From an uncultured Verrucomicrobiota bacterium (GTDB taxonomy: Bacteria > Verrucomicrobiota > Kiritimatiellia > RZYC01), in assembly GCA_964490935.1 (NCBI GenBank), contig CAZBEO010000006.1:5261-69260 (forward strand): DNA of 64,000 nt, in the 5' to 3' direction. The notes below the pieces were generated by a model. That model searched no databases, was not told the origin of the DNA, and saw only the letters and a program-made list of their open reading frames with translations. The translations under genes were made by a program, and so were the position numbers. Below, piece by piece: positions 9,982 through 54,222 of this stretch (its first letter is position 1; the number at the start of each line of letters is the position of its first letter).

Positions 9982-9994
9982 TCAAAAAAAACGG

Positions 9995-11524: not shown

Positions 11525-11565
11525 CCCCGGCGGGCAGGACCCCGCCTCAAACCGGACCACGCACT

Positions 11566-12339
11566 ATGAAGGACACAGCCACTAAACAGCCGAAAAAGCC
11601 CGAACAAGACCCCAGGAAACGGCGGGTCATCATCCGCACTATCGGCATGAAAAAGGAATACAACCGGGGCGGTGAAATCACCCAGGCCCTGCGCGGCGTG
11701 GACGTCGAACTCTATACCGGCGAATTCATCGTGGTCATGGGCCCCTCCGGCTCCGGGAAAAGCACCTTCTTCAATATGATCGGCGCGCTCGACAGCCCCT
11801 CACACGGGCGCGTATTCATCGACGAAGTGGACGTGGCCCAACTCACCGCCGAAGAACTCGCCTTTCTGCGCTGCCGAAAAATCGGCTACATCTTTCAATC
11901 CTACAATTTGATTCAATACATGACCGCCCTGGAAAATGTGACCACGCCCATGGCCTTCGGCGGTGTGGACCCCGATCAGGCGCGCAAGCGTGGCATGGAC
12001 CTCCTCGAACTGGTCGGCCTGGGAGACCGCTGGTTCCACCGCCCCATCGAAATGTCCGGCGGACAGCAACAGCGCGTCGCCATCGCCCGCTCCCTGGCCA
12101 ATCAACCTTCCGTTCTGCTGTGCGATGAACCCACTGCCAATCTCGACCATCACACCGGGGATGAAATTCTCGCCATCCTGCAGAAATTGAACACCGAGCG
12201 CGGCGTTACCATTATCTGCGCCACCCACGATCACCGGATGATGAACGTGTGCGACCGCCTGCTCTGGATACGCGACGGAGCCATCGAGCGCATTGCCCGT
12301 CGCGACGAAGTGGAAGTGGAACTTGGAAGCATTGATTAG
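11566..12339 (+). CDS. ABC transporter ATP-binding protein, MacB/LolD-type
   Basis: Walker [19 protein letters not shown], signature [15 protein letters not shown], Walker B LLCDEPTANLD, H-loop ATHD. Paralog of 19291-20016. Confidence 0.93.
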   Translation: MKDTATKQPKKPEQDPRKRRVIIRTIGMKKEYNRGGEITQALRGVDVELYTGEFIVVMGPSGSGKSTFFNMIGALDSPSHGRVFIDEVDVAQLTAEELAFLRCRKIGYIFQSYNLIQYMTALENVTTPMAFGGVDPDQARKRGMDLLELVGLGDRWFHRPIEMSGGQQQRVAIARSLANQPSVLLCDEPTANLDHHTGDEILAILQKLNTERGVTIICATHDHRMMNVCDRLLWIRDGAIERIARRDEVEVELGSID

Positions 12340-12353
12340 AAACTAAAAACAAT

Positions 12354-32337: not shown

Positions 32338-35300
32338 ATGAGCGTTTTGAAAGCATTGAGCAATTTGACGGTTAAGAGCAAGCTGATCGGGCTGGCCTTG
32401 TTTTCGATGTTGCTGATCGCCGGTATCGTGGCGGTCGGCATGGTCAACTATCTGAAAATTTCCTCCGCGCTCCTGGTCAAAGATCAGATTTATGTCATTT
32501 CAGAGGAGTTGCTTGATGCACGGGTTGCGGAGAAATCGTACCTGCAGTTTCACGACAAGGAGTATGCAGATAGCTTGGTGAGCATTGCGGCGCGGGCCCG
32601 GGAGAGCGCAGAAAAGCTGACACAGGAGAAACTTGGAGCGGCCCAGCAGAAGCTTGTCGGTGATATTTCCGAGCGGACACAGAATTACAGCGACAAGTTC
32701 AATGAGTTGGTCGAAGTCTATGCGGAGCGGGTTACGTGCAGAGAAACCATGAACGCGGCGTCTGTCCAGGCAGATGAAGTTCTTTCCAAGGTCTTGAGAA
32801 CCATCGGCGATCTGGAATACGAATTGATGCTGGACGGCGATTCGCTTACGGCGCAGCAGAGCGCCATATTGGGTTCGGCTGGCGATTGCAGAGTCTATCT
32901 CGCGGTGGCCAACAGCATGCAAAAAGCGTCCGTCATAAGCGGAGACTTGGCCGATTATGCCGCCTATACCAACTATATAGGGGGTTCCGCCGCTCTATCA
33001 CTGAGCGCCCTGGAGGTTGCTGCCAATAGCCTGGGTACGGTGCGCGACGTCAGCATGAAGGATATTGCAAAAGCCTTTCTGGATTCCGTGGCGGAGTATA
33101 AAACAGCATCTGGCAGGGCTCAGGATTTGTTTGTTCAAGAGCGGGCGATGACTCGGGAATTGGACGCCATCGGCACCGCCACCCAGGAGCAGGCAGGTCA
33201 ATTGATTGCCGGGGCCGCTGAATCGGTCGCGGCGACACAGCGTGCGGTCATTCGGATGATCACCTTGTTTCTTGTTGTGGGTATATTCCTCTTCGTGGTG
33301 GTGGTCGTGATCATCATCGTTTCCATTACGCGCCCGATTTCATTGATCACCAACGTGGCCACCGTTTTTCAAACAGGCGATTTTTCCGCTGAGATTTCGT
33401 ATCGTTCCAAAAATGAAATAGGTCAATTGGCGGATGCCTTCCGAAGCATGGCTCTTGCTCAGTCTAAAAAAATAGATGCGGCGGCAGCGATTTCAGACGG
33501 CGATTTGTCGGTCCAGATCGAATTGATGTCCGATCGTGACGCCTTGGGGAAATCCCTACAATCCATGGTTCGGGTGCTTCAGGATGTGATTCGGCAAAAT
33601 GAAGTGACCTGTCAGGCCCAGCAGGCGGGGGACCTTGACGCCCGTAACTGCCTGGATGGCTTGAGGGGCGACTACCAGACGCTGGCGGGTGGAGTAAACG
33701 CAGCGCTCGATAGTATCGCGCTGCCGATCGTTGAAGGGATCGGGATGCTCAATGAATATGCCCAGGGCGATGTGAGCCGCGAGATGCGCGAGCTGCCCGG
33801 AAAACAGATGATGCTTACGGACGGTTTGCGGAATATCCGCAGTAATCTTCAGAACATGATCGAAGATGCCCGGAGCCTTGCCCAGGCGGGGGCGGAAGGG
33901 CGCTTGAGTTTCCGGGCGGATACCACCAGGCTGCACGGGGATTTCCGCACCATTATCCAGGGGATCAACGATACGCTGGACCATGTGCTGGTTCCCATGC
34001 AGGAGGGGATGGAGGTCATCTCCCGCCTTTCTCAGTCCGAATTTGTGCGGATGGAAAAGGAGTATCCGGGCGATTACGCCGTGATACGCCGCAACGTGAA
34101 TCACGTATCCGATCCGTTGGCCACCATGACCGGGGAATTTGAAGGACTGGCGGCCGCAGTCAAAGAAGGCGATTTGGCGTTTCGCGCCAACGCCGAGGCC
34201 TTTGATGGTGCCTATCGTCGTATCGTGGATGTGGTCAACGCCTCTCTGGAGGCTGTGGCCACACCGATTCGGGAGGCTGGCGAAGTGCTTGGTGCCGCCG
34301 CAGAGCAGGACCTTACCGTGCGTGTCAGGGGCCGGTACAACGGGCAACTGGCGGAGTTTAAGGATAACGTCAATACGACCATCGAGAGGCTGAACGATGC
34401 GCTGGGGCAGGTGGCGCTCACCGTGAGTCAGGTGAACTCGGGCGCGGAGCAGATCAGCGACGCGAGTCAGTCGCTCTCACAGGGGGCGACGGAACAGGCG
34501 TCATCGCTGCAGGAGATTACCAGTTCCATGGCGGAAATCGCTTCCCAGGCCAAGACGAACGCCGAGAATGCGAACCAGGCCAACAGCTTGGCCGATGCGG
34601 TGCGCAAGTCGGCGGAGAAGGGGTCGGCACAGATGACGCAGATGACGGGCGCGATGGATTCCATTAATGCATCCAGCGCGCAGATCGCCAAGATCATCAA
34701 GGTGATTGATGATATTGCATTCCAGACCAACCTGCTGGCGTTAAATGCGGCGGTCGAGGCGGCGCGTGCCGGTCGTCACGGCAAGGGTTTTGCCGTGGTG
34801 GCGGATGAAGTGCGCAATCTGGCGGGTCGCAGCGCGAAGGCGGCGAAGGAAACGGCGGAGCTGATCGAATCTTCCGGCGCAAAGGCCAATGCCGGCATGC
34901 AGGTGGCGAATGCCACGGCGGAGTCCTTCAAAGATATCGTGGACGGGATCGTAAAGACGAATGATCTGGTGGGCGAGATTGCGGCAGCGTCGAGTGAGCA
35001 GGCGCAGGGCGTATCGCAAATCAACATCGGGTTGAGCCAGGTGGATCAAGTCACGCAGCAGAATACGGCCAACGCCGAGGAAACGGCATCGGCGGCGCAG
35101 GAATTGAGCAGTCAATCCGTGCGCCTGCACACACTGGTTGCGAAATTCCGGCTGAGTGGGGCAGCGGAAGAGGGTGAGGCGAAGTCCAGTGGCCGAGCGC
35201 TTCCGGCGGCATCGGAGTCTTCGTGGGGCCATGGGGACGAGGCGTCGAACGACAAGAGCATAATGAAGTGGTCGGAGGAGTTTTCCGTGGGGAACGGAAA

Positions 35301-35646
35301 GATGGATGCGCAGCATAAACGCCTGTTTGGGTTGATCAATAAGGTATACGGGGCGTTGCAAAGCGGCAAAGGCAATGAACAGGCGTTGGCGATTCTGGAG
35401 GAACTGGCGGATTACACACAGACGCACTTTTCGGAAGAAGAAGCTCTGATGCGTCTGTATAACTATCCAGGCCTCGATGAGCAGGTGGAGACGCACCGCG
35501 CTTTTGTTCAGAAGGTGGTTGATTTACAGGAGAGCGCACGGAAGGGACAGCCTTTGGGTGCCCGGGTCTTTATTTTCCTGAAAGATTGGCTGACGACGCA
35601 TATTTGCAAACTGGACAAACAATACAGCGATTATCTGCCGGAGTGA
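32338..35646 (+). CDS. Methyl-accepting chemotaxis protein with periplasmic helical sensor, poly-HAMP array and C-terminal bacteriohemerythrin domain (DcrH-like)
   Basis: Two TMs flank a 280-aa periplasmic domain. Multiple HAMP-like repeats. MA signalling domain ([50 protein letters not shown]). The last 115 aa (35290-35646) carry hemerythrin ligand spacing H-x3-E / H-x3-H / H-x4-D ([31 protein letters not shown]). Confidence 0.92.
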
Positions 35647-36710: not shown

Positions 36711-39170
36711 TCACTCCAGCGACATGGAAATGGCTTCGCGAATCCGGTCGGCCATCTCCTGATATTCTTCTTCGGACGGCGTCACCGGCGGCAAAATGCG
36801 CACCGTGACCGGCGCGAAAAACCGGGGCAGACGGCGACCCGGCGGAAGGGCTTCAAACGCGCCTTGAATCGCCGCTGGCAGCACCGGCACCTTCCGTTCG
36901 AGGCTCAGCATCGCGAAGGTGGGACGAAACGCCCCCAGGTGTCCATCGCGCGTTCGCGTACCTTCGGGGAAAATGATGACGCTCCCGCCGCTTTGCAGCG
37001 CCGCACTCATTTTCTGGATGGATTCGCGCAGGCGCTTGTTGATGTCCATCACAATCACGTTACAGTGCCGCGCGAGATAGCGCAAAAACACATTATTCAC
37101 ATGCCGCTCCTTGGCATAGAAAAACACCTGCTGCATGCGGCGGGCCGTAAGTGCAGCGGAAAGAAAAAGCCCATCCAGATAGCTGCCGTGATTCGCCACC
37201 AGAATAAATGGACCCTGCGCCGGAATATTTTCCACCCCCTCGACGCGTACGCGGAAACAGACGCGAATCAACCCATTCAGCAGGCGCACCAGCGAGCGGT
37301 GCAGCCAACCGCTATGCGGCAGATCGACCGCCTCGCCGGAAGTCAGAATGTCCTTCCAGTGGAACGTCTTTTCCACATCGCGATCTTTGTGGCCGTCAAT
37401 GTATTCCGCCAGTTGGCGCACCGTGGTCAAGCGCTCGAAATCCACGTCCGCCAGTTCCACCCCAAACGACTCGCGCACATACACCTGCAAGCTGATGCGC
37501 CCGAGGGAATCCAGCCCAAGGTCGGCCGTCAGCCGCGCATCCGCCGTGACAGGCAGGCTCACCAGCCGCCCCAGGCACTGCATCAGCCGTCGGCATGTGG
37601 CCGACGGAGCTTCCACCTCTCGCTCTGCCTCTAACACCGCACGCCCCGCCAACTCCGGCAGCAGAAAACGCCGCAGCTTCCCCAGCCGCGTACGCGGCAA
37701 CTCCTGCGCCACCAGCCAGGAGCGGGCGATTTTCTTGTATGAAGCGGCCTTCTCATTATACGGCGCAAGAATCTGTTCCTCCGCCCAGGTCTCGTCCGCC
37801 CCGGCGGGTGCCTGCTCACCCAGACGCAGCGCCGCCTGCAATACGTCATCACGCAGAAACACGCCCACTTCGCACAGTGCCGGCGAAACCGACAACAGCT
37901 TTTCCTCTACCTCCGCCGGGTTCACCTTCTTCCCGCTTGGCAACACGAGAATCTCCTTGATGCGTCCGGTGATGAACAAGCGACCATCCGCATCAAGCCG
38001 ACCGGTATCACCCGTATACAGCCATCCGTCGCGCAGCACCTCGGCGGTCTCCTCGGGGCGTCCGTAATACCCCTGCATCACGTTCGGTCCACGCGTAATG
38101 ATTTCCCCATCCTGAATGCGCACCTCATTGCACTCAAGGGCCTGACCACACGAGCCCGGACACACCCCGTCTGGACGCGGAAACGTGATCATAGGAGCCG
38201 CCTCCGTCATGCCATAGCCCTCCAGCACGCAGAACCCCAGCGTACGCAGGCATTCCGCCACCGCCGGGTCCAGCGGAGCGCCCCCGCTCACCATAAACTG
38301 CATGTGCCCACCGAACTTCTCATGCACCTTGCGAAAAAGCCGCCGCGAAAACGCGGGCGAGCCCACCCGCCGCGCCAGACCATACAGTGTCCGAGCCACC
38401 ACAGACTCTGCAAAGCGAGCCTGGATATTGCCCGCAATCAAAGCATAAAACCGGGGCACGCCGATAATCAGTGTCACCGCATGACGCTGCAGTGTCGCCA
38501 TCATATCCGCCGGCGAAAGCGAAGGCGTGAACACCAGCGTACCCGCCGTGGCCAGCGGTGCCAGCACCGACCCCACCAGTGGCAGCACGTGATGCAGTGG
38601 CAGCAGCACCAACGTCCGTTGATCCCGCGTGAAAATACCCGCCGCGCCTACCGCACGCACATTCTCCATCAGATTATTGAACGAAAGCATCACGCCCTTC
38701 GGCTTGCCCGTGGTGCCCGAAGTATAAATAATCACGGCCGTCTGCTCCGCATCTCCCGCCACCTCAACCGGCGCGGAGTGCGATGCGCACGCCTCTGCCA
38801 ACTCCTCCACCACCATCAACCGACACGAAACGCCCGCCTGCTCCAACGCCGCACGCGCACGCCCCTCCGACTGACGCGAACACACCAGCAGCTCTGGACG
38901 GCAGTCGCTCAGAATAAAAGCCACCTCGTCCGGCGGCAGCTCGTGATCGATCGTCACATTCACCGCCCCGCGCAACCACACCGCATAAAAAGCGAACACC
39001 CATTCCGGTCGGTTCTCCAGATACAGCGCGACCCTGGAACCGGATACAGGCTCCAGCGTGCTTGCCGTGTCGCCCACCGCCTTCAACAGCTCCGCATAGG
39101 AGACCACCCGGTCACCCGCCAGCATCGCCGTCTTCCCCTCATCCTTCAAAAAGTAAATAGTCATCCTCAA
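36711..39170 (-). CDS. Tri-domain acyl-activating enzyme: AMP-dependent synthetase/ligase + acyl-carrier (phosphopantetheine) domain + 1-acyl-sn-glycerol-3-phosphate acyltransferase (PlsC/LPLAT); Aas-like
   Basis: AMP-binding motif IIYTSGTTGKPKGVMLS. Carrier-domain motif DLGLDSLGRISL. LPLAT motifs HxxxxD (VANHGSYLDGLF) and FPEGTRTRDG. Confidence 0.85.
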   Translation of the reverse strand: MRMTIYFLKDEGKTAMLAGDRVVSYAELLKAVGDTASTLEPVSGSRVALYLENRPEWVFAFYAVWLRGAVNVTIDHELPPDEVAFILSDCRPELLVCSRQSEGRARAALEQAGVSCRLMVVEELAEACASHSAPVEVAGDAEQTAVIIYTSGTTGKPKGVMLSFNNLMENVRAVGAAGIFTRDQRTLVLLPLHHVLPLVGSVLAPLATAGTLVFTPSLSPADMMATLQRHAVTLIIGVPRFYALIAGNIQARFAESVVARTLYGLARRVGSPAFSRRLFRKVHEKFGGHMQFMVSGGAPLDPAVAECLRTLGFCVLEGYGMTEAAPMITFPRPDGVCPGSCGQALECNEVRIQDGEIITRGPNVMQGYYGRPEETAEVLRDGWLYTGDTGRLDADGRLFITGRIKEILVLPSGKKVNPAEVEEKLLSVSPALCEVGVFLRDDVLQAALRLGEQAPAGADETWAEEQILAPYNEKAASYKKIARSWLVAQELPRTRLGKLRRFLLPELAGRAVLEAEREVEAPSATCRRLMQCLGRLVSLPVTADARLTADLGLDSLGRISLQVYVRESFGVELADVDFERLTTVRQLAEYIDGHKDRDVEKTFHWKDILTSGEAVDLPHSGWLHRSLVRLLNGLIRVCFRVRVEGVENIPAQGPFILVANHGSYLDGLFLSAALTARRMQQVFFYAKERHVNNVFLRYLARHCNVIVMDINKRLRESIQKMSAALQSGGSVIIFPEGTRTRDGHLGAFRPTFAMLSLERKVPVLPAAIQGAFEALPPGRRLPRFFAPVTVRILPPVTPSEEEYQEMADRIREAISMSLE

Positions 39171-41729: not shown

Positions 41730-41876
41730 AGGGACTTCCCGATCGTGATAGAAGATGACGGAGCACATCGTAATCGCCCATAGCTCACGGGTCAAGCGGA
41801 TCGCGAGCCGTTTCTGCTTGTTTTGCCGGGGTCCTTTTGTGAAAGTCTACGTCGCAATAGGGAGATTACGCTGCCA

Positions 41877-42776
41877 ATGAATAGAAGATCATTCCGCCGG
41901 CTATGCCTGCTGCTTCTGCTGTTTTGTTTCGTCAGTTTGGGTTGTACCGTTTTGCGGGGCGGTGATCCGGCGAGGAAGCCCCGTCAGCAGGTACGTGCCA
42001 CAAAAGCCTGGCTTTGTTACTACGGCAATGACCGGGGCGTGCTGACGGCTAATCCCTTGATCGATCTGTTGATTCTGGATGCCGACGAGTTGGGCCCGCT
42101 GACCAGGGAGGAAAAGAATAACCGCCTCTGTCTGGCCTATCTCAGCGTGGGTGAGGCAGAAGAATTTCGCATGTATTGGAAGGGTATTCGCAATAAATCC
42201 TGGGTGCTGGGAAAGAATCCGGATTGGCCGGGCGATCATCTGGTGGATGTGCGCAGTGAGGAATGGTGCCGTTTGCTGACCCATGAGGTCGCCCCGCGCT
42301 TGATGGCTGCTGGCTATGATGGGTTTATGCTCGATACACTGGATACGGCGGAGACCCTGCTACAATCTGATCCCGTCACCTACGCCGGCGTGAACGAGAC
42401 CATGGCCGACCTTGTTTTAACGCTGCGCAAACGCTGGCCGGACGCCGTGATTCTGGTGAACCGCGGCTTTGACGTACTTCCCTTGATTGCCCCGCAAATT
42501 GACGGGGTTCTGGTGGAGGGGGTTCGTTCAACCATGGACTTCAAGCGCAAACGCTCGCGGATGCTCTCCACCGATGAGTGCCTTTGGATCGAAAAGAAAC
42601 TGGAAGCAGCTCAAAACGCCGGGCTGCCTATTTTTGCACTGGATTATGTGGCCCCGCCGGACCCAGATCAGGCCGCCGCCGTGTATCACCGGCTTCAACG
42701 TCTTGGATACCGCCCGCTGATCAGTACGCCGGACCTGTCGCATTACGACTTTCCGTATGTGTACACCGGGCCCTAG
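41877..42776 (+). CDS. Lipoprotein with GH114/TM1410-like TIM-barrel glycoside-hydrolase fold (putative endo-alpha-1,4-polygalactosaminidase-type)
   Basis: Lipobox FVSLGC after MNRRSFRRLCLLLLLF. Body resembles GH114-type barrels (WLCYYG...LLILDADE...AYLSVGEAEEFRMYW...GYDGFMLDTLDTAE...VNRGFDVL). Assignment is by recollection only. Confidence 0.4.
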   Translation: MNRRSFRRLCLLLLLFCFVSLGCTVLRGGDPARKPRQQVRATKAWLCYYGNDRGVLTANPLIDLLILDADELGPLTREEKNNRLCLAYLSVGEAEEFRMYWKGIRNKSWVLGKNPDWPGDHLVDVRSEEWCRLLTHEVAPRLMAAGYDGFMLDTLDTAETLLQSDPVTYAGVNETMADLVLTLRKRWPDAVILVNRGFDVLPLIAPQIDGVLVEGVRSTMDFKRKRSRMLSTDECLWIEKKLEAAQNAGLPIFALDYVAPPDPDQAAAVYHRLQRLGYRPLISTPDLSHYDFPYVYTGP

Positions 42777-44708: not shown

Positions 44709-45116
44709 TCAGGACGCCTCTGCGAATGCTCTCAGGCTAACGGACCGTGTGGGAAACGCACGCAATATCTGTTTGTCTGAAGTCACGAGTATGGTTCCTA
44801 GGTCTTCGGCCAAGGCGACGTATTCGCAGTCATACGCCGAGCAAGTGGACCCCACAACCACCTGCATGACAATCGCCGAAGGAATCAGATATTCTTGGCC
44901 GGCGAGCTGAGATTCGGCGCCGCTGAGGCAACGATCAATGCTGGAGCGATCAAGGTCACCACGGCGGAGATAGCCTGCAAGAATATTGCGGAACTCCGAA
45001 CGCCAGAGAATTGAAGAAACCCAGTGCGGATCTTTGACCAAAGCCCGCTCCGCAAATTCGGTCATATCGCCCGGTATCCACAGGTACGCGATCGTGTTGA
45101 CATCTACAACGATCAC
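44709..45116 (-). CDS. vapC: PIN-domain toxin VapC
   Basis: MIVVDVNTIAYLWIPGD... PIN fold with conserved Asp residues. Overlaps the upstream antitoxin gene by 4 nt. Confidence 0.8.
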   Translation of the reverse strand: MIVVDVNTIAYLWIPGDMTEFAERALVKDPHWVSSILWRSEFRNILAGYLRRGDLDRSSIDRCLSGAESQLAGQEYLIPSAIVMQVVVGSTCSAYDCEYVALAEDLGTILVTSDKQILRAFPTRSVSLRAFAEAS

Positions 45117-45352
45117 CGACGCCCCGCATTTTTCAGGGCGTTGAGATCCTTTTGGGTGAGATAAACGCCCAAGGTCTCCCGCACGGCGCGGGCGTGGTCC
45201 CCAATAGCACCCGCATCAATGGGAGTGCCACGCAACGTCAGCTCCAGCGTAGCGATCACTTCCTTGTTCAGGCTCCTCCCGTGAGATTTGGCCTGCATCT
45301 TAAGGGTGCGGTGTATGGCTGGCGGAATATTCTTTAACGTGATGGTAGTCAT
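45113..45352 (-). CDS. vapB: Ribbon-helix-helix antitoxin (VapB/FitA-like)
   Basis: MTTITLKNIPPAIHRTLKMQAKSHGRSLNKEVIATLE is a typical RHH antitoxin N-terminus. Start could alternatively be the upstream ATG at 45370. Confidence 0.7.
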   Translation of the reverse strand: MTTITLKNIPPAIHRTLKMQAKSHGRSLNKEVIATLELTLRGTPIDAGAIGDHARAVRETLGVYLTQKDLNALKNAGRR

Positions 45353-45390
45353 GGCGCAACCATAACGCATCCATTATGGATGTCAATGCG

Positions 45391-48300
45391 TCATTCTTCC
45401 GTATCCACTTCGACCCGGTAGGTGCGTTGGTTGAGAGCGGATGGCGCGGGGACAGTGTGCTCGCCCGTATCCTGCCACTCATAGATGGCGCCCGTACCGG
45501 AAATGGTGGTGGTGGCGCGATTCCACGCGGACGTAACCAGGCTGCTGTTATTATAACTGATGAAGTACGATTTGCCGGACTTGGTGGGAAACTGTATCAG
45601 AAAGTTTCCGCTCGCAAGGCTCGACATGCTGTCGATTTCGAGCAGGTCGTAGCGGTTTGTCGGATTGGTTCCGGCGAAGTATTCGTTGCGGTCTTTGAAT
45701 CCATCATCATCCCAATCGGAGGTGTCGCTGACAGAGGAAAGGTTGTGGAAGTATTCCAGTTCCCACCAGTCAGGAATACCGTTCTGATTGCTGTCCGCCT
45801 CGGTTTGATTTCCGGCTGAGAAGTAGAGGGAGAAGGTGAAGCTGCCGGTTCCGAAAAGCTCGACCTGCTCGATCTGGGCGAGGTTGCGCATGTTGAGGGT
45901 GTGGAATGCAACGCCACCGTCGGGATTATCGTCTACGGCGTCTTCATTGAAGGAGGCGGAATGGGTTCCATCTCCTGCGCCAATGCCGGCCATCACATCC
46001 GTCACGCCGTCGCGGTTCGAGAGGCTCAACACGCCATTGGAAATGGCGGAGCGCGTCAGGTAGGTCTGCCCCTTCATGAGCAGATTCATCAGATTCGGCG
46101 AAAGGCCATTGCGGATGTAGATGGTCTGGCCGGCCAGATCGCCGCTGAGAGCATAAGCCACTTCAAAGGCGTTGGTGGCATCGCCCAGCGTGATGGTCTT
46201 GGTGATTTTGCCATCGGCAGAGACGAGCTGCCAGCCGTTGTCGCCGGAGGTGGCGAAGGTGTAAAGCCCGTTCACGTAGTCCGAGCTGTTCGCCCACCAG
46301 TCTTTCAGGCACGAGGTGCGATAGGCCCCGAGCACGCCGTTGCTGGTGACATTGTAGGTGCCTTCGTCTTCGGTTTCCGTGCCAGCGTAGTTCACGGGAT
46401 TCCCCACCACCTGGTAGACGGCCCCATTCGTGTGACGTGCCCAGGCGGCTGTCATACGTCCTCCGCTGCGTTCGAAGAGGGCGCAAACCTGTTTGTTGTA
46501 GAGGAGATATTCGACCTCGCCGTCGAGATCGACATCCACGGCCTGGCGTTGCGTGCCGGAAAGTCCGGGTGCGTCGGCGGCCCACGCATCCACAAAGGTG
46601 TAGAGTGCGGCAAAACGACTCTGCGCCTGCGCAATTTTGGCGAAGTCAATGAGCACATTGGTTCCGGTGGCCGGATAGATGTATTCGCCGGTGCTGAATT
46701 TATCGAGGTTGTTTTGGTCCTCGGTATGGAAGGCGGTCTCGAAGACGGAGGCGTGAATCACGCTGCGCGCGAGGTCGGCCACCTGCGGGTTGACGATGGA
46801 CTCCACGGCATCCCAAGCATTGGAAATGATGCCTCCCGAGTAGAGCATCCCATACTCCTGCGGCACGGGCACGCCACTGCGGATGTTGAATATTTTTTCT
46901 TGCAGACCTTCCTCTTGGGCGCTGCCGCAGTACCAGTTGTCGTAATTCATCTGTGTGGCATGGTTGATCCAGTCGTGCCCGAGCTTGGTGCGCGCCTCGG
47001 TGCCGCGGTCAATCTGCTGCCAGGCATCGCCCGTGTCATCGCCGGAGGTGTCTTCGTTGCCTGCGAGAATATCGTCGAGGGCGACGATGCGCGTCCAGGG
47101 GCGGTTGGCGAACCAGCGGAGGACGTTGTCGTAGGCGGCGGCCTTTTCCAGATCGGTGGAGTCTTCCCACATGTAGAACATGGTGACGACCTGGTCCTGC
47201 GTGTCACTGCGTGCACGACGGTTGAAGAGGCCGCGTAGAGCCATAGCGATGCCGCCGTCGTACACCGTGTATTTATATTGGTCCACGCTATTGTTGATCA
47301 CAAAGCAGGAGACGTCATTGATCTTGTTGATGCGATAGCCGTCATCACCCAGCGCCACAGTACGGCCCAGCCAGTACCACATGTGACTGTTCTGATCAAT
47401 AATCGTGGAGCGGTAGCCCATGCTCAGGATTTTCCCAAGCACACCATCGTCCAGCACGCGCTCGGGCGTCCAGAACACGGAGTTGGTGGTGAATTCCACG
47501 CCGTATAGGCCGCCAAGGAATTCCGCCGCGAGTTCGGCGTTGTCGTTGTTGAAATCTGCCGTGAAGAACGGGAGGATATGATCCGAGAAGGTGGAGGCCA
47601 GCAGGTGTACCGTACCCGTGGCGGCCAGTTCCTTGATCCAATTGTTGAACTCCGGGCCATCGGCATAGCGGGTGCGCCGCCAGGCATCCGGATCATCCGG
47701 ATCGGTCTTTGCCCATTGCAGTGCGGAGGCGAGCGTGGGGGTGATGTGCAGATTCAGCTTGCGCTGATAAATGTCATGCACATTTAGCGAGCGGTGCAGG
47801 CCCGCGCCTTCGCCGTTGTTGATGAGGTTCTGCATGACGCTTCCGGGCTGGACGTGCTGGTTGCCGTGCATCAGCAGGGCTACCTTTGCACATTTGCCGC
47901 GATCATTTTCCGCATTGTGTCCGACCCATTGATTCAGGTAGCCGTTTGCCATGATCCAGTCCTGATCGCGCCAGTGGTCAGAGCAAATCCAGGTGTTACG
48001 TATGGCGTCGCGTATGTCAGAGCGTCCGCCGATATCGCCCTCGCCGACGGGATCATTGGAGGTGCCGTCCTTGGTGGTGTAGACTTGGAAGTTGAGCTGG
48101 CGATAATCCAGGCCGTTCCAACTCGCATCCAGCAGTGCCTGGCGGCTGATGGAGAATTCGACGGCATCAAGTTCGGCGTTGAAGTGGGCCTGCTTGAATC
48201 CATTGGCTGTATTCTGGTCGCGGGCGACGACCCCGAAGTCGGCCAGATTCTGCGCGATGGCGGTGGTGTTGTGGGCGGTGTCGGTATCCACATAGACGCG

Positions 48301-51300
48301 CCCGTCGTTGTAGCCGTAGACGGCGACCACGGCTTCCCAGCGCATGTCGGTTCCGGTGTCGATGTCGTCCGGGAGGTTGCGTTCGCCGGCGGAGGGGCTG
48401 TTCATGTCCACCACCACGTAGAGGTTCAGATAGCCGTCCTCGGCATTGGCCTGAAGATCGTGCAAGTCTACGCGGAAATAGAATTGGCCATCGCCGCCAT
48501 CGGCCACGGCGCCGCCGTCGTGAATATAAAAGGCGGTCATGTCGCGCGAGGTATCGTAGCCATCCCAGGCGCGGTAAATGTCCACGGCGGAGTTCTGGGC
48601 CTCGGTGTTGTAGTTATCGAGGGCGATGAGATCATCCTCCGTCCAGTCGGTGAATTCGACGTAATTGGTGACGCCGTTAATCACGCCGATGGGGTCGCCC
48701 CGTCCGATCACGATGCTGCCGGGCGGAGGCGGTATGCCGGTATCCGCCACCCAGGGATTTGTTCCATTGGCATATTCCTGTGCATTCGTGAACTCGTCTG
48801 CATCCGGATCGGCGGTCGGGCCGTTGACCAAATTGGGCGTTCCGCCCCGCAGACTGACGGTGCCGCTATCGAGCGGATCGAGATTATTCCAGACTTCCCA
48901 ACCATCCGGCAGGCCGTCGCCGTCGGTGTCGAAATTGAGCGGGTCGGTTTCAGTCCAAACTTCGCCGGATTGCCAGATGCGGTCTTTATTGGTATCGCCA
49001 TCAATGGTGCCGTTGAAGTTTTTATCTTCTCCGTGTCCGTCGTTGATGCCATCGCCATCGGTATCGGGATTGTTCGGATCGGTTTCGGTCCAAATTTCGT
49101 CGGGGTCCATGATGCCGTCGGGCCAACTACGCGCCAGCCAGGGGTCAAAGGTAGGATCAATCGAAGCGCCATCGCCATCCACCCAGCCGTTACGGTTGGC
49201 ATCTTCGATACCATCGGGGAGTCCGTCGTAATCCGTGTCGGAGTTGGTGGGGTCGGTGGTGGTGCCGGCGAGTTTTTTCGTGCGGTCTCCGCCCTTGGAA
49301 ATGCTGTCGGCACCGGGTACGCGTCCGTAATTCGACCAAGGTTCTTCGCCGTATTCGTTGCCCACCGTGTTGTAGAAAGGCGGGTCGAGATCGGCGAGAA
49401 AGTTTTTGTAGCCATCGCCATTGGTGTCCGTGTTGGTGTCGGTCTGGGCGCTGTCAGTGGGGAAGCGCCATCCGAGTTCGAGGGCGTCGTGCAGGCCGTC
49501 CCCATCGGTATCCGGGCCGGTTGCACTGGTTTTCCCGTAGCTGTAATACGTGAATATCTCGGATTGTTTCCACAGGTCGGAGTTGGGCGAGCTGACGGCG
49601 TTGGTCAGGGGCACCGAGGTGACTTCATCCAGGTCGAGAATGCCGTCATCATCGTCATCCAGTGAATTGGTGGAGGCCGCCACGGTCTGGCGCAGGATCA
49701 CATAACAATTGCGCCCGGCGCTGTTGCTGGTTTCGTTGGTGGTTTGTACGCGGGCGGTGAAATGGAAATAGCCGGGGACCATGTTCGACCAGGCGTAGTC
49801 GATAAACTGGACACCGGTTTCCGTCCAGTTGGAGACGAGCGTGACGCTGCCCGTGTAGGCGGAGGGCCAGCTATCCATGGTGATGGAGGAGGTCGTCACG
49901 TTGGTCACGGTGCGCAGGCGGATGCGCATGGAGCGGTCTTCCGCTGTCGGGGTGGGCACATCGGGTAGGATCAGATCAATGCGACGCCCATCGGAATCAT
50001 ATTCCTTGGGTTCCACGATTTCCAGATTCGGTGCTTCTTCGGCCTTCTGCGCCTTGACCAGGCGGGTGCCCACCAGATCGCCAAGTCCTTCGCGATCGAA
50101 GGTGACCTCGATGCCGTGCAGCCAGTCCGTCTGCCCATTATAGAGATTGGGCAGGGTGTAGGCCAGTGCGTGGTAATCGCTGGTTTCATCCCACACAATG
50201 GAATACCCGCTCTTGCTCTGGATGACGCCTCCCGAGGTGACACCGGAAACGGCGCTCTGAATCCGGACGGTCAAACGGTCAATCAGATCATTCGAGCTGA
50301 GTCCATCGGCCAGCGACTTGCTGAAATAGGCCTTCATGCCGTAGCCTGCTTCCACTTCATCGCCGTCCTTTTCCGGCCAAGCCACGAAGAGTCGTACAGT
50401 CGGCCCCCAGGTTTGAACCTGCCGCTCAAGCGTGTTGAAGTGCCCGTCTTCATCGGTCATGCCGGTGGTCCAGGTGGCTCGATCGGCGGAGGACCATTCG
50501 CAGAGGCGGGCTTTGATCACCGCATTGGATCCGCCCGAGGGAATGTTGACGTAATTGAAGCGCCATTCTTTTTCGTAGCCATCTGCGCCGGGGAGATATT
50601 GCGACTGAGCATAGGCGGTCTGCCAAGCTTCGGGGAGAAGGGCATCATAGACGCCATTGCCGTTGATATCCGTGAAAGGCTCGCCGAGATCGTAGGTTTC
50701 GTTATCATTCTGATCTTCGAAGGGCTCGAAGCCGCGTCCGTTGCCGTTGGCCACGTCGGTGATGTAGTCATCATTTTCCGGATCGCTATCGTCGATGTGA
50801 TACCACATATTCCGGGTGGAGGCATCGCCGCGCACGACCGCGCCGTACTGCTGGCCGTCGACGGCATCGCCGTTGGCCGCCGGCCAAAGGATGACGCCGC
50901 CCGGTGTTTCGGTGTCGTAATAGAAGGTTTGCTGGAAAGTGTTGTAGATGGCGGCGCCATCGGTTCGATTCAGGAAGGCGCGTGCCTGAATGAAGTGGAA
51001 ACCTTCGGTCAGACCGGTTTGATAGGTGCTAAAATCGTTGTGCGGGTAGTGACCGACCGTTTCGCCGTTGAAGTTGGTGATTTGCCAGACGCCCATACGC
51101 GTGGTTTTGAGGGCCACGGCATCGGCACCACCGGGCCATACGACATTCCATTGCGGATCATTGGTATCCACGCCTTGCTGGAAGAAGCAACCGAGTTTAT
51201 AGCGCAGGTCCGAGCCTGCGGAAAACGACGGCAGGGAGCAGTTCCACCAATCCTTACCATCCCCGCTGTCGGAGTGATTAAACGTAAGTTCTACAGTTCG

Positions 51301-53919
51301 TGTGTCGCCTTTTCCTTCGCCACCCGCGCCTTCCGGCCAAGTGCCGTTCGTGGTGTAGTAGAAGAACACCTTATTGATGTTCCCAGGGTCGCCGGTTTTC
51401 GCCCACAGCGTAGTGCCATCGTTTTGCGGAGCCCCCGTATCGTTGAGCCCGGCTGGATCGTGGTAGATAAAGAGAGCCGTTTCCGTGCCGCTCCAATCAT
51501 TGCTACCGGAGGAGGCGGTACTGGTATAGACGCCCGAACCAACCGTGGTGCGATAGGTGGAAGCGCCTGCCGAACCGATTTTGTTATAGTCGGAGTCGGT
51601 GGATGCGAATTTTTCGCGTCGAATGCGCTTCACGAAGCCAGCGCTTTCATAACCCAAATAGAGGTCGTCCACCTTGGTGGGCGGATTGTCGCGCAGGGCG
51701 ATGTCCCAGGCATATTCCACCGGTACGGTGCCGTTCAGGTCCACGCCGCCATCGAGTTTCATCAGGACGTTTCCGGCGGAGCCGTCCACGCGGGCCACGA
51801 AGCGGATGTTGGTACCCGAGGTAATGCGGGGCACCCACCAGGTGTAGGCGTAATCGGTGGCGTTGCTGTCGCTCACGCCATGCGGGTTGAACGCGGGGTC
51901 GCCATCGGGGCCGTCCCGGCGCACATAGGGCATCCAAGAGGCTTCGCGTTCATTTTCATAGACTGTGATTGGCTTGCCACCCGTTTGCGCCCATAGCGTG
52001 GAGGGGTCGGGATTCTTCCAGGAGAAGGCAAAATAACCGCCCTGAGGAACCGTGATGGAATTCAGCGCCGAGGCGTAGGTATAGAAGCCATAAGCATAGT
52101 CGGAATAATTGAACAGATAGGCATCGGCCTCTGTTCCGGCTTCATGTGGGAAGCTGACATTTCCCATGATGTCGCGGGATAGCCCAGCGTCGTAATTGTC
52201 ATTCAGCATGAGCAACAGGGTCACATGAGCGGGGGCACTTTCGCCCGCCTGCCGCCAATCCAGCCGTTCATAGGCGAGATAGTCGCTGTCGGAATAGACC
52301 CCGCGCTGATAGCCGCGGGCAAACTGATTGTGAATGTAGAGCAGGTTGGGGATTTTATTATCACCCCACTGGCCGAGAAAGGCGGTGTTGGCCCAGCGCG
52401 GGAAGGCACCGCCGCTTTCGCCGAGGGTTTCCGCGTGGTAATTCCCATCGGTATAAAGCAGGCCCAGCCCGGCACGTGTGAAATAAATGGCGTGCTGCAG
52501 CTCTTTGCAGGCGGCGTAATCATTGTCGTGGCTCTGCGCGTGCATGACGCCCAGATCGGCGGAGAATCCGCCCGCGCCCGGGTTGTCCAGTCCTTCTAGG
52601 CTGCCATATCCACTGCCGAGCACCCCGTTAAGTTTGGAACGAAGATCGTTATCTACCAGGCGCATTCCGGTGGCAAAGTAGCCATCGTATCCCGGCGGCG
52701 AGCCGAGATGCTCGCCGAACATCATGGCGTCATCGCGGGGAATCTCGGTGTTGAAGACAGAATTCCGGTGATTATCCCAGTCGCTGATTCCGCGAGAGAG
52801 ATTGTACTGGACTTGGGCCTGTCCGGTATAGCCGTCGCCACTGGTATCGCTATTGTAGGCCCCGAAAAAGTAGTCCGGCACGTGCTTGACGGCATCGAGC
52901 CGCAGGCCGTCGGCCTTGGTCCGGTCCATCAGCCAGCGAACGCATCGCATCAGGTAGCCGCCCACATCTTCGGCGGTCGGATTGCCCATGTTGTAGATGC
53001 TGTCGCCGTAGCCCGCTGCTGCCGTGCGCCACGGGGTGTAGGGGCGCGTCGGGTCCAGTCCGGTATCTTCAAAGGGTTCGCAAGCCTCGCCGGCAGTATG
53101 CTGTCCGTCGCCGTTGGTATCTTCCCAGTCAAACTTGCCGTTTCCCGCCGCTGCGGCGACGTAGACGGCGGAGCTGTTGGTGTAGCCCACGTCTTGGTAG
53201 GGCTCCTTGTTGGCGAAGGTGTGTTCGTTCCAGGAATAGGAGTCATAGCCCACTGGGATGGACAGGTCGGTATCGAGGTAATATTCGGGGTTGTTCGGAT
53301 GGCGTACCCCGCTCCACTTCGGATGGGAGTCGCCTTCGCTAAATCCAAAGTTGGCGTTCGGGGTCTCGTGCGCGATGTCGATCAGATCGGAGAGCCCCAG
53401 GTTCATCACTTGCCAGGCCGACTGCCAGTCGCGGCAGTTATCCCACTTGCGGTAAAAACCCTCTTCCGTTTTGCGCAGGTGGAAATCTTCGGGCACCATG
53501 CCGGGATAAACGTTGATCGAAGTACTTTCGTCGTAGCCGGGGATGTCAAACGCACGGTGATTCATGATGTTGTCGAAATAGATGCGTATGCCGAAGCGGT
53601 GCGCGATTTCGATCAGTCGTTGCAGTTCCGGTTCGGTGCCGTAGCGCGTGCGGGTCGTATTGCGCTGATCGCGCCCGCCGATATCGAGCGGGTCCCAGAG
53701 GTCGTATCCCACGGAGAGGCCGCCGCTGCCCTTCGTCGGCGGCGGGAGCCACAACGAGTTATACCCCGCTTCCGCCAACTCAGGAATTTTATCCGCGATC
53801 TCATTCCAGTCGGTGTTGAAATATTGCAGCATGGCCTCACCGTGTGCTCCTTGCAGCAATCCAAAGAAAAGGGAGGCGGAAAGAATCCACCAGCCCGTGA
53901 TTTTTTTCAGCGCGTTCAT
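45391..53919 (-). CDS. 2842-aa secreted multi-domain alpha-glucan-active protein: signal peptide, GH13 alpha-amylase catalytic domain, beta-sandwich/TSP3 calcium-binding repeat region, GH57/GH38-superfamily-like barrel, C-terminal beta-sandwich domains
   Basis: GH13 regions I-IV (FDNIMNHRAF; GLRLDAVKHV; MMFGEHLG; QSHDND) in aa 30-480 (nt about 52480-53830). Clustered thrombospondin-type-3-like DxDxDGxxDxxE repeats (DTDGDGLHDALE, DTDGDGINDG, DTDGDGLPDGWE) around aa 1430-1650. Downstream block LLMHGNQHVQPG...VFWTPERVLDDG...IVALDDILAGNED resembles GH57 regions (HQP; GxWxPE nucleophile). Confidence 0.8.
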   Translation of the reverse strand: MNALKKITGWWILSASLFFGLLQGAHGEAMLQYFNTDWNEIADKIPELAEAGYNSLWLPPPTKGSGGLSVGYDLWDPLDIGGRDQRNTTRTRYGTEPELQRLIEIAHRFGIRIYFDNIMNHRAFDIPGYDESTSINVYPGMVPEDFHLRKTEEGFYRKWDNCRDWQSAWQVMNLGLSDLIDIAHETPNANFGFSEGDSHPKWSGVRHPNNPEYYLDTDLSIPVGYDSYSWNEHTFANKEPYQDVGYTNSSAVYVAAAAGNGKFDWEDTNGDGQHTAGEACEPFEDTGLDPTRPYTPWRTAAAGYGDSIYNMGNPTAEDVGGYLMRCVRWLMDRTKADGLRLDAVKHVPDYFFGAYNSDTSGDGYTGQAQVQYNLSRGISDWDNHRNSVFNTEIPRDDAMMFGEHLGSPPGYDGYFATGMRLVDNDLRSKLNGVLGSGYGSLEGLDNPGAGGFSADLGVMHAQSHDNDYAACKELQHAIYFTRAGLGLLYTDGNYHAETLGESGGAFPRWANTAFLGQWGDNKIPNLLYIHNQFARGYQRGVYSDSDYLAYERLDWRQAGESAPAHVTLLLMLNDNYDAGLSRDIMGNVSFPHEAGTEADAYLFNYSDYAYGFYTYASALNSITVPQGGYFAFSWKNPDPSTLWAQTGGKPITVYENEREASWMPYVRRDGPDGDPAFNPHGVSDSNATDYAYTWWVPRITSGTNIRFVARVDGSAGNVLMKLDGGVDLNGTVPVEYAWDIALRDNPPTKVDDLYLGYESAGFVKRIRREKFASTDSDYNKIGSAGASTYRTTVGSGVYTSTASSGSNDWSGTETALFIYHDPAGLNDTGAPQNDGTTLWAKTGDPGNINKVFFYYTTNGTWPEGAGGEGKGDTRTVELTFNHSDSGDGKDWWNCSLPSFSAGSDLRYKLGCFFQQGVDTNDPQWNVVWPGGADAVALKTTRMGVWQITNFNGETVGHYPHNDFSTYQTGLTEGFHFIQARAFLNRTDGAAIYNTFQQTFYYDTETPGGVILWPAANGDAVDGQQYGAVVRGDASTRNMWYHIDDSDPENDDYITDVANGNGRGFEPFEDQNDNETYDLGEPFTDINGNGVYDALLPEAWQTAYAQSQYLPGADGYEKEWRFNYVNIPSGGSNAVIKARLCEWSSADRATWTTGMTDEDGHFNTLERQVQTWGPTVRLFVAWPEKDGDEVEAGYGMKAYFSKSLADGLSSNDLIDRLTVRIQSAVSGVTSGGVIQSKSGYSIVWDETSDYHALAYTLPNLYNGQTDWLHGIEVTFDREGLGDLVGTRLVKAQKAEEAPNLEIVEPKEYDSDGRRIDLILPDVPTPTAEDRSMRIRLRTVTNVTTSSITMDSWPSAYTGSVTLVSNWTETGVQFIDYAWSNMVPGYFHFTARVQTTNETSNSAGRNCYVILRQTVAASTNSLDDDDDGILDLDEVTSVPLTNAVSSPNSDLWKQSEIFTYYSYGKTSATGPDTDGDGLHDALELGWRFPTDSAQTDTNTDTNGDGYKNFLADLDPPFYNTVGNEYGEEPWSNYGRVPGADSISKGGDRTKKLAGTTTDPTNSDTDYDGLPDGIEDANRNGWVDGDGASIDPTFDPWLARSWPDGIMDPDEIWTETDPNNPDTDGDGINDGHGEDKNFNGTIDGDTNKDRIWQSGEVWTETDPLNFDTDGDGLPDGWEVWNNLDPLDSGTVSLRGGTPNLVNGPTADPDADEFTNAQEYANGTNPWVADTGIPPPPGSIVIGRGDPIGVINGVTNYVEFTDWTEDDLIALDNYNTEAQNSAVDIYRAWDGYDTSRDMTAFYIHDGGAVADGGDGQFYFRVDLHDLQANAEDGYLNLYVVVDMNSPSAGERNLPDDIDTGTDMRWEAVVAVYGYNDGRVYVDTDTAHNTTAIAQNLADFGVVARDQNTANGFKQAHFNAELDAVEFSISRQALLDASWNGLDYRQLNFQVYTTKDGTSNDPVGEGDIGGRSDIRDAIRNTWICSDHWRDQDWIMANGYLNQWVGHNAENDRGKCAKVALLMHGNQHVQPGSVMQNLINNGEGAGLHRSLNVHDIYQRKLNLHITPTLASALQWAKTDPDDPDAWRRTRYADGPEFNNWIKELAATGTVHLLASTFSDHILPFFTADFNNDNAELAAEFLGGLYGVEFTTNSVFWTPERVLDDGVLGKILSMGYRSTIIDQNSHMWYWLGRTVALGDDGYRINKINDVSCFVINNSVDQYKYTVYDGGIAMALRGLFNRRARSDTQDQVVTMFYMWEDSTDLEKAAAYDNVLRWFANRPWTRIVALDDILAGNEDTSGDDTGDAWQQIDRGTEARTKLGHDWINHATQMNYDNWYCGSAQEEGLQEKIFNIRSGVPVPQEYGMLYSGGIISNAWDAVESIVNPQVADLARSVIHASVFETAFHTEDQNNLDKFSTGEYIYPATGTNVLIDFAKIAQAQSRFAALYTFVDAWAADAPGLSGTQRQAVDVDLDGEVEYLLYNKQVCALFERSGGRMTAAWARHTNGAVYQVVGNPVNYAGTETEDEGTYNVTSNGVLGAYRTSCLKDWWANSSDYVNGLYTFATSGDNGWQLVSADGKITKTITLGDATNAFEVAYALSGDLAGQTIYIRNGLSPNLMNLLMKGQTYLTRSAISNGVLSLSNRDGVTDVMAGIGAGDGTHSASFNEDAVDDNPDGGVAFHTLNMRNLAQIEQVELFGTGSFTFSLYFSAGNQTEADSNQNGIPDWWELEYFHNLSSVSDTSDWDDDGFKDRNEYFAGTNPTNRYDLLEIDSMSSLASGNFLIQFPTKSGKSYFISYNNSSLVTSAWNRATTTISGTGAIYEWQDTGEHTVPAPSALNQRTYRVEVDTEE

Positions 53920-54060
53920 CGGTACCCTCCAACCCTTTTTATATAAAACGTTTTACTTAAAATAATATAGGCTCTTTTCGGCCCCTTGTTTAGACTTTTC
54001 AGCCAGCGACATGTTTATTTTTAAGCCCTGATTTTAACCATGGGTAAATGTATGCCTTTG
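53920..54060 (-). promoter_or_regulatory. AT-rich putative promoter region of the giant glycoside-hydrolase gene, containing 10-bp palindrome aaaacgtttt (53945-53954)
   Basis: Conspicuously AT-rich (tttttatataaaacgttttacttaaaataatatag) immediately upstream of the 53919 start codon in an otherwise GC-rich window. Confidence 0.3.
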
Positions 54061-54222
54061 CGTGCATCTCGTCAAGCGCACGGGCCTTCGACGTAGCCGC
54101 CCGCCCGCCGAGCGGACGAAGGAGGGGTGGGCGGAGGGATCGGACAACACACTCGACGTGGCTTTCAGCGGGCGCCACGCGACCCGTAAGCCTACGGACA
54201 TTGCGACGGATATATTCTGCAT

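Follow-up and report, generated by a model that had tools for sequence, protein, structure and literature searches.

The window analysed here is a 64,000-nucleotide stretch of DNA from an uncultured Verrucomicrobiota bacterium of the class Kiritimatiellia (assembly GCA_964490935.1, contig CAZBEO010000006.1, positions 5,261 to 69,260), in which one gene encodes a giant protein of 2842 amino acids (aa). This protein appears, with a likelihood somewhat better than even, to be a secreted alpha-amylase of glycoside hydrolase (GH) family 13, located at the cell surface or extracellularly and carrying a degenerate accessory unit of GH57 type, probably for the binding of alpha-glucan. The N-terminal module contains the complete GH13 catalytic set, which is invariant among homologues, and the GH57-like module towards the C-terminus has a methionine (Met2250) at the position of the GH57 proton donor. 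The coordinates of all features are given in Table 1.

The gene and its full-length family

The original prediction of a single 2842-aa protein was confirmed at the level of the open reading frame (ORF) and by full-length homologues. A search of about 5.8 billion proteins yielded 830 relatives. The best 120 of these, on which the alignment-based conservation counts given below are based, were almost all full-length (2670-3124 aa), showed 46-73% identity and were collinear with the query. An ORF of such length in DNA of about 58% GC, together with 830 homologues, indicates that the frame is real and not a chance frame. That it might be an artefact of chimeric assembly or of a fused gene call has next to no probability; the unusual length is the sole point in its favour, and this explanation was ruled out because more than 100 full-length proteins of the family (2700-3100 aa), obtained independently in various assemblies and sources, have identical domain order. 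The source names of family members, where given, were generic ("hypothetical protein", "glycosidase" or "alpha-amylase family glycosyl hydrolase"), and one JGI entry was a plain list of three Pfam domains. The product is highly acidic, with a net charge of about -218.

The N-terminus MNALKKITGWWILSASLFFGLLQGAHG, followed by EA after the putative cleavage site, resembles a Sec signal peptide. A hydrophobic N-terminal segment was found in 101 of 119 full-length homologues with a hydrophobicity heuristic, which is not a dedicated signal-peptide predictor, and a conserved mature start, E[AV]M[LV]QYFNT, follows directly after this segment. No transmembrane-like or other hydrophobic segment was detected past the N-terminus in a hydrophobicity scan of the protein. 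The signal-like N-terminus and the lack of any other hydrophobic segment suggest that the protein is secreted, as had been proposed.

The GH13 catalytic module

Judged by its sequence, the N-terminal module is a GH13 member. The motifs FDNIMNH, GLRLDAVKH, GEHLG and SHDND start at aa 115, 338, 402 and 463 and provide region I (D116/H121), region II (R340/D342), region III (E403) and region IV (H464/D465), respectively. The catalytic Asp/Glu/Asp are present as D342 (nucleophile), E403 (acid/base) and D465, and so are the accessory residues D116, H121, R340 and H464. All seven canonical residues were invariant in 120/120 homologues, so that the earlier claim of intact regions I-IV held at the very motifs it had named. 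Strict conservation of the complete catalytic set argues for real glycosidase chemistry. The GH13 part was also the most conserved of the protein, with about 75% per-column identity.

Profile searches pointed to the same family. PF00128 scored 51.7 bits against a cut-off of 22, and NCBIfam alpha-amylase models matched the first roughly 90 residues. When the full-length family profile was compared with the Protein Data Bank (PDB), every match at E up to 1 was a GH13 enzyme and the top 38 matches were amylases; the best was the amylase of P. woesei (1mwo, 7e-32), with Halothermothrix AmyB and Bacillus liquefying amylases also among the best. The module resembles these liquefying amylases (P. woesei 1MWO, H. 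orenii AmyB 3BC9, Bacillus 1BLI/1HVX) over its first roughly 90 residues (beta1-beta3, region I) and in the completeness of regions I-IV and of the Asp/Glu/Asp triad. It differs from them in that sequence alignment was obtained only at the N-terminal segment and region II, in that regions I and II are about 215 aa apart, and in that more than 2200 residues follow the module. Between regions I and II, about aa 201-300 are gappy and poorly conserved and include an isolated motif at 267 that resembles thrombospondin type 3 (TSP3) repeats.

Fold of the GH57-type unit

The region near the C-terminal end consists of a (beta/alpha)7 barrel (about aa 2010-2290), a helical region (about 2290-2455) and a beta-sandwich (about 2456-2705). 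An AlphaFold2 (AF2) model of aa 1990-2705, built with an alignment including 18 diverse homologues, reached a pLDDT of 80 and a pTM of 0.85. In a Foldseek comparison with the PDB the best match was the GH57 4-alpha-glucanotransferase of T. litoralis (1k1x/1k1w, E 2e-19), aligned over the whole chain, and the next matches were GH38 alpha-mannosidases and other GH57 structures. Both model and Foldseek therefore show the (beta/alpha)7 "incomplete TIM" barrel of GH57. A barrel of the GH57/GH38 superfamily had been predicted, together with HxxQP- and GxWxPE-like motifs; the motifs are present and conserved as H2018-G-N-Q-H-V-Q-P and V-F-W2150-T-P-E2153-R-V. The similarity to GH57 is not confined to the barrel and takes in the helical region as well as the beta-sandwich that 4-alpha-glucanotransferases have at the C-terminal end.

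At the sequence level the link of the module to GH57 is weak. PF03065 gave 19.8 bits with the whole protein and 24.8 bits with the isolated segment (cut-off 21.2), and it matched 12/16 family members with a best E of 4e-8; the only match of the module profile to PDB sequences was weak (E 0.44). Genuine GH57 enzymes were retrieved with a 416-aa query rebuilt from a frameshifted Thermococcus-like locus, and 16 4-alpha-glucanotransferases were aligned. Profile-profile comparison of the module with these 16 sequences by hhalign gave a probability of 92.5% and an E of 5e-7 over 507 columns, in agreement with the fold comparison. The module was conserved as strongly as the rest of the protein.

The module shares with the T. 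litoralis enzyme (1K1W/1K1X) and its Thermococcales relatives a collinear barrel, helical region and beta-sandwich; the WxxERV nucleophile motif and a DVD(L/F)DG motif at the start of the sandwich are also common to the module and the T. litoralis enzyme. Unlike that enzyme, it has an extra beta-domain ahead of the barrel, and identity is about 10-16%. As a side observation, the GH57 4-alpha-glucanotransferase gene of a Thermococcus-like draft genome (GCA_001316165.1, locus L079, 3001-4978) is split into three ORFs by homopolymer-type frameshifts, which most likely are sequencing errors and do not mark a pseudogene.

Catalytic residues of the GH57-like module

GH57 is defined by a (beta/alpha)7 barrel, a Glu nucleophile on strand beta4, an Asp proton donor on strand beta7 and five conserved sequence regions (CSRs), which in the 4-alpha-glucanotransferases read HNHQP, GQLEIV, WLTERV, HDDGEKFGVW and AQCNDAYWH (Martinovicova & Janecek 2018, PMC6037648 and its Table S1). 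The corresponding regions of the protein in the window are HGNQH, GTVHLL, WTPERV, FYMWEDSTDL and SVFETAFHT. CSR-3 alone is intact and CSR-1 is partial, so that the set of five CSRs is incomplete.

Equivalences of single residues were taken from the profile-profile alignment, with GH57 residues numbered as in the 4-alpha-glucanotransferase. In CSR-1, His11, His13 and Gln14 correspond to H2018, N2020 and Q2021; in CSR-2, Glu79 corresponds to H2105, a variable position. Trp120, the nucleophile Glu123 and Arg124 of CSR-3 are matched by W2150, E2153 and R2154, and Asp145, between CSR-3 and CSR-4, by D2175. The equivalents in CSR-4 are Y2249 for Asp213, M2250 for the proton donor Asp214 and E2252 for Glu216, and Asp354 of CSR-5 is matched by T2395. 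The module thus differs from the T. litoralis enzyme by Asp214->Met, His13->Asn, Asp354->Thr and the placement of Glu79 at a variable position.

The GH57 nucleophile is present, E2153 being kept in 119/120 homologues, and the proton-donor Asp of CSR-4 is absent. Position 2250 was occupied in the family by N (36), M (35), D (13), A (11) and P (9), among others, and never by Asp in the 56-member subclade of the query; N, M, A and P together make up about 89% of the family. In more distant relatives of the module, positions 2249-2252 are D-D-W-E, the counterpart of the GH57 D-D-G-E; the occurrence of DDWE in relatives without GH13 independently confirms the register of CSR-4. Among representatives in which the relevant columns were aligned, the proton-donor Asp was found in 45/62 without GH13 as against 1/14 with GH13, and most of the 17 non-Asp cases without GH13 look like truncated fragments of the giant family. 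These counts indicate that loss of the catalytic acid tracks fusion behind GH13.

The original prediction of two alpha-glucan-active folds on one polypeptide therefore held in part: the GH13 set is intact and a GH57 fold is present, but a second alpha-glucan-active centre is not established, because Met2250 sits at the Asp214 position. The outcome in which the downstream barrel is a non-catalytic module, which had been named as the one that would overturn that prediction, is the more likely one, although it is not proven. The description of the two folds as mechanistically distinct did not stand, since GH13 and GH57 differ in fold and not in mechanism, both being retaining (PMC6037648). The module appears to descend from GH57 and to work like it, yet it is not filed as a functional GH57 member, because it lacks both the proton donor and the full CSR set.

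The closest published concept is the group of GH57 "4-alpha-glucanotransferase-like" proteins with incomplete catalytic machinery (PMC6037648). The module shares with them the fold, CSR-3, the lack of one catalytic residue and an occurrence in bacteria only. Those proteins average about 620 aa, and no GH13 fusion was described for them (PMC6037648); in the present family, unlike in that group, donor loss tracks the GH13 fusion. The CSR-1 string HGNQ was not found in the published table of 1602 sequences. An odd GH57 sequence from Opitutaceae in the same study was considered as a family member and ruled out, as it has 479 aa and different CSRs. No description of a GH13-GH57 fusion or of this Kiritimatiellia protein family was found in the literature.

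The GH57-like module as part of a wider unit

Directly ahead of the barrel lies a conserved beta-rich domain, designated A2. It gave no Pfam or PDB sequence-profile match. In its model (pLDDT 81) the sole significant fold match was the glucodextranase of Arthrobacter globiformis (1ug9; single Foldseek match, E 2e-4, 220 aligned columns), with a low TM-score (TMq 0.37). The matched part of 1UG9 may be a C-terminal binding-type domain. Every relative had a homologue of A2 immediately ahead of the GH57-like module, from which it follows that the evolutionary unit comprises A2, barrel, helical region and sandwich, about 950-980 aa in all.

A profile search of the module against 1.84 billion representatives retrieved 593 proteins at E up to 1e-3, of which 182 remained at 1e-30. 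The unit has about 590 representatives at 50% identity, from Kiritimatiellia, Sumerlaeia, Planctomycetota, Caldiserica-labelled and other metagenome-assembled genomes (MAGs). Non-giant relatives are secreted-looking proteins of about 930-1260 aa with the module at the end, for example P0288 (Sumerlaeia MAG, 929 aa) and P0299 (Planctomycetota). Two larger proteins from outside Kiritimatiellia, both annotated as hypothetical, carry the unit with an intact DDWE behind a canonical N-terminal GH57 domain: P0309 (2400 aa) has two CBM53 and one CBM25 carbohydrate-binding modules (CBMs) in addition, and P0318 (3459 aa) has Ig and fn3 domains and, after the unit, a CHU_C type IX secretion signal at its end. 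In P0280 an alpha-glucan water dikinase Ig-like N-terminal domain at the start is followed by the unit. P0288, P0280, P0309 and P0318 thus resemble the giant protein in the two-part unit at the C-terminal end and in being secreted-looking; unlike it, they keep DDWE and lack GH13, and their N-terminal partner is a canonical GH57, starch CBMs or nothing. The gene contexts of the stand-alone relatives P0288 and P0280 were uninformative. The occurrence of the unit alongside amylolytic domains and starch-binding modules suggests that it deals with alpha-glucan.

Remaining parts of the protein

The middle region between the GH13 module and the repeats gave no Pfam, NCBIfam or PDB-profile match. The run of TSP3 DxDxDG repeats noted originally was found again, as an array of about eight repeats and a C-terminal pair. 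Repeats of the array, which spans aa 1421-1675, lie at aa 1421, 1470, 1498, 1561, 1573, 1619, 1632 and 1664, further copies at 2709 and 2735, and lone copies at 267 and 1084. These repeats are, by their motif, of a calcium-binding type. PF18884 (TSP3_bac) scored 23.1 bits on this protein, just below the cut-off of 25, and was found in 13/16 family members with a best E of 4e-14. NF033765 (CglD) gave 69 bits over aa 1418-1642 against a family cut-off of 400. The DxDxDG repeats are held in common with the Myxococcus surface proteins CglD and MtsD; the rest of the protein is different from these.

The C-terminal domain of about 90 aa is common to the family. After TSP3 repeats it also ends shorter proteins (L062, 1003-3762; L016, 8304-12428), and its sharing by other proteins hints at a common sorting or anchoring function.

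Table 1. Location of the giant gene, its parts and flanking features in the window
Feature	Protein position (aa)	Window coordinates	Strand	Basis or remark
Whole gene	1-2842	45391..53919	-	2842 codons + stop
Signal-peptide-like N-terminus	1-27	53839..53919	-	KK, hydrophobic core, putative AHG/EA cleavage site; heuristic
GH13 alpha-amylase-type catalytic module	28-560	52240..53838	-	Profiles and motifs
Middle region	561-1415	49675..52239	-	35-60% conserved; YYTTNGTWPEG motif and one isolated DINGNG
Array of about 8 TSP3 repeats (DxDxDGxxDxxE)	1416-1727	48739..49674	-	
Conserved beta-rich domain A2	1728-2004	47908..48738	-	Model and Foldseek
GH57-type unit	2005-2705	45805..47907	-	AF2, Foldseek and hhalign
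Glu2153 codon, equivalent of GH57 nucleophile Glu123	2153	47461..47463	-	WTPERV vs WLTERV
Met2250 codon, position of GH57 proton donor Asp214	2250	47170..47172	-	
Two more TSP3-type repeats, DSNQNGIPDWWE and DWDDDGFKDRNE	2706-2750	45670..45804	-	Motif; weak Amuc_1099-family match
C-terminal domain, about 90 aa	2751-2842	45394..45669	-	Common to family
vapBC-like pair		44709..45370	-	RHH antitoxin 45113-45370, PIN toxin 44709-45116; downstream of giant gene, same strand
Upstream AT-rich region		53920..54080	-	Sigma-70-like hexamers, palindrome, RBS

Distribution and gene neighbourhood

The giant gene was found at 306 loci in a scan with one genome per species. Among the 78 of these loci that were listed, nearly all belonged to Kiritimatiellia or to Planctomycetes-Verrucomicrobia-Chlamydiae (PVC) MAGs labelled Verrucomicrobia/Lentisphaerae; one cultured Pontiellaceae strain and one Tichowtungia MAG were included, and the closest relative listed was a Kiritimatiellae MAG with 90% identity in the module. 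The architecture, described as uncommon in the original prediction, is not rare within the lineage and forms a conserved family across Kiritimatiellia. Some genomes contained two copies of the gene; in several MAGs these lay on different contigs, and tandem duplicates were seen in some Kiritimatiellia MAGs, at L010 (4091-12541 and 12713-21031) and L034 (3-3110 and 4019-12520).

Across the 55 loci where the gene is complete, no neighbouring gene family recurred at more than five, which indicates that the giant gene is a self-contained unit. Its neighbours in the window (the vapBC pair, CstA, a GT9 glycosyltransferase and a Ser/Thr kinase) are incidental. The predicted vapBC module is indeed present behind the gene as a ribbon-helix-helix (RHH)/PIN pair. 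The FitA-like RHH antitoxin scored 44.7 bits against a cut-off of 27, and the PIN protein 22.9 bits against 23.6, a marginal score. The two genes overlap by 4 nt, and the pair begins 20 nt past the stop codon of the giant gene. A functional operon with vapBC was rejected, the pair not being a recurrent neighbour in the comparison of 55 loci.

The AT-rich island with a palindrome that had been noted upstream was also present. The palindrome AAAACGTTTT has a single copy in the window (53945-53954), where chance alone would predict 0.06, and a ribosome-binding site (RBS), GGAGGG, lies at 53925-53930, 5 nt ahead of the ATG. Just upstream of the RBS, the 15-mer TAAAACGTTTTATAT (53941-53955) is identical in the locus of the closest relative (L001, 3945-3960), and the bases flanking it in the intergenic region differ between the two; it may be an operator or promoter element.

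Some other genes of the window were recorded. A 317-aa protein (41823-42776, + strand) whose N-terminus is hydrophobic and which contains a GH114 domain (PF03537, E 7e-17) is probably another exported glycosidase; between its gene and the end of the giant gene, a distance of about 2.6 kb, lie the CstA gene and the vapBC pair. At 7867-17213 (+ strand) a DUF6785/DUF6784 protein, a 509-aa FtsX-type permease, a 257-aa ORF (11566-12339) and a 1619-aa protein are encoded; the only recognisable domain of the last is a C-terminal FtsX permease, and it is an unusual large ABC/MacB-like component. A methyl-accepting chemotaxis protein of 1102 aa (32338-35646, + strand) combines HAMP domains of three kinds with a hemerythrin domain at its C-terminus and may be a chemoreceptor for O2/NO or iron. 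At 36711-39170 (- strand) an AMP-binding enzyme is fused to phosphopantetheine-binding and acyltransferase domains in a protein of 819 aa, of the Aas-like lysophospholipid reacylation type.

Proposed function and alternative explanations

Several points weigh against a GH13 amylase with a degenerate GH57-type accessory unit. PF00128 spans only aa 37-153 and a short region II stretch, and the putative alpha-glucan substrate was deduced from the family to which the protein belongs and from the domains that accompany the unit in its relatives. In the GH57-like module the pocket is still strongly conserved (H2018, Q2021, D2113, W2150, E2153, R2154, D2175, H2179, W2251 and E2252), and an acid is conserved at 2253 (D/E in 111/120), three residues past the lost Asp. 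This acid could be a relocated acid/base, with catalysis retained.

The protein would then be a dual-catalytic machine: its GH57-like module would have stayed active as a retaining enzyme, with E2153 as nucleophile and a relocated acid/base (E2252 or D/E2253), and would operate in series with the GH13 module, for example as a 4-alpha-glucanotransferase or with some other specificity for alpha-glucans. We consider this unlikely, although it is the foremost rival. The near-invariance of E2153, R2154, W2150, H2018 and Q2021 is in its favour, as are the conservation of E2252, the Glu216 equivalent, in 117/120 homologues and that of the module as a whole, which matches the rest of the protein. At 2253 the GH13-fused proteins have an acidic residue where the DDWE[A/K] relatives have A/K, a difference that would fit a migrated acid, and in the P. 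furiosus GH57 alpha-galactosidase the proposed CSR-4 donor, Asp248, lies off the template Asp and was not found experimentally (PMC6037648). On the other hand, the proton-donor position varies freely (M/N/A/P/Q/S/D) within and between subclades, a pattern typical of relaxed constraint, and the positions of GH57 Glu79 and Asp354 are replaced too; moreover, a GH57 homologue that lacks a catalytic residue is regarded as very probably incapable of typical GH57 action (PMC6037648). A related proposal, that the A2 and GH57-like unit constitutes an unrecognised GH57-related hydrolase or transferase family whose giant members are catalytic through the same relocated residues, appears doubtful, and slightly more so. 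If true, the polypeptide would be a two-enzyme surface machine, with a GH13 endo-amylase feeding a GH57-type transferase or debrancher.

A housekeeping protein of the cell envelope in place of a foraging amylase, which would remodel the organism's own extracellular alpha-glucan or capsule or would be mainly a calcium-dependent adhesin using its GH domains for attachment, is clearly less probable than either. Such a role would suit an architecture of roughly 2800 aa kept across 306 loci with so well conserved a GH13 part, a gene standing alone without linked transporters or other alpha-glucan genes, and TSP3 arrays resembling those of the Myxococcus adhesion/cohesion proteins CglD and MtsD. It is at odds with the strict conservation of the complete GH13 catalytic set and with the co-occurrence of starch-binding CBM25 and CBM53 with relatives of the C-terminal unit, and an alpha-glucan capsule in these organisms has no support in this analysis.

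Under the favoured explanation, a secreted GH13 amylase with a degenerate accessory unit, the protein would first be exported by the Sec pathway, and the GH13 module would then be the working catalyst. It would cleave alpha-1,4 bonds of starch- or glycogen-type glucans by retaining double displacement, with D342 as nucleophile, E403 as acid/base and D465 as transition-state stabiliser. The TSP3 arrays would act as rigid, Ca2+-loaded spacers, and the C-terminal domain may retain the protein at the cell surface. The GH57-type unit would be an ancient mobile accessory, occurring in other phyla as a stand-alone secreted protein or behind a canonical GH57 with CBM25/CBM53, and would have degenerated once it was fused behind GH13. 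Most likely it is now a non-hydrolytic module for alpha-glucan binding or chain positioning, comparable to inactive GH domains that act as lectins.

Kiritimatiellia have been known chiefly for breaking down complex and often sulfated polysaccharides. The strict conservation of a stand-alone alpha-amylase of about 2800 aa suggests that the whole class has alpha-glucan (glycogen or starch of algal or bacterial origin) as a core substrate or surface ligand. The family also defines an uncharacterised GH57-related unit that moves between phyla together with amylolytic domains and starch-binding modules, and would provide a natural example of how one catalytic domain, when fused to another, loses its acid/base. 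It offers a concrete candidate clade for CAZy-type classification and puts to enzymologists the question whether the unit serves for binding or is an enzyme whose catalytic acid has moved.

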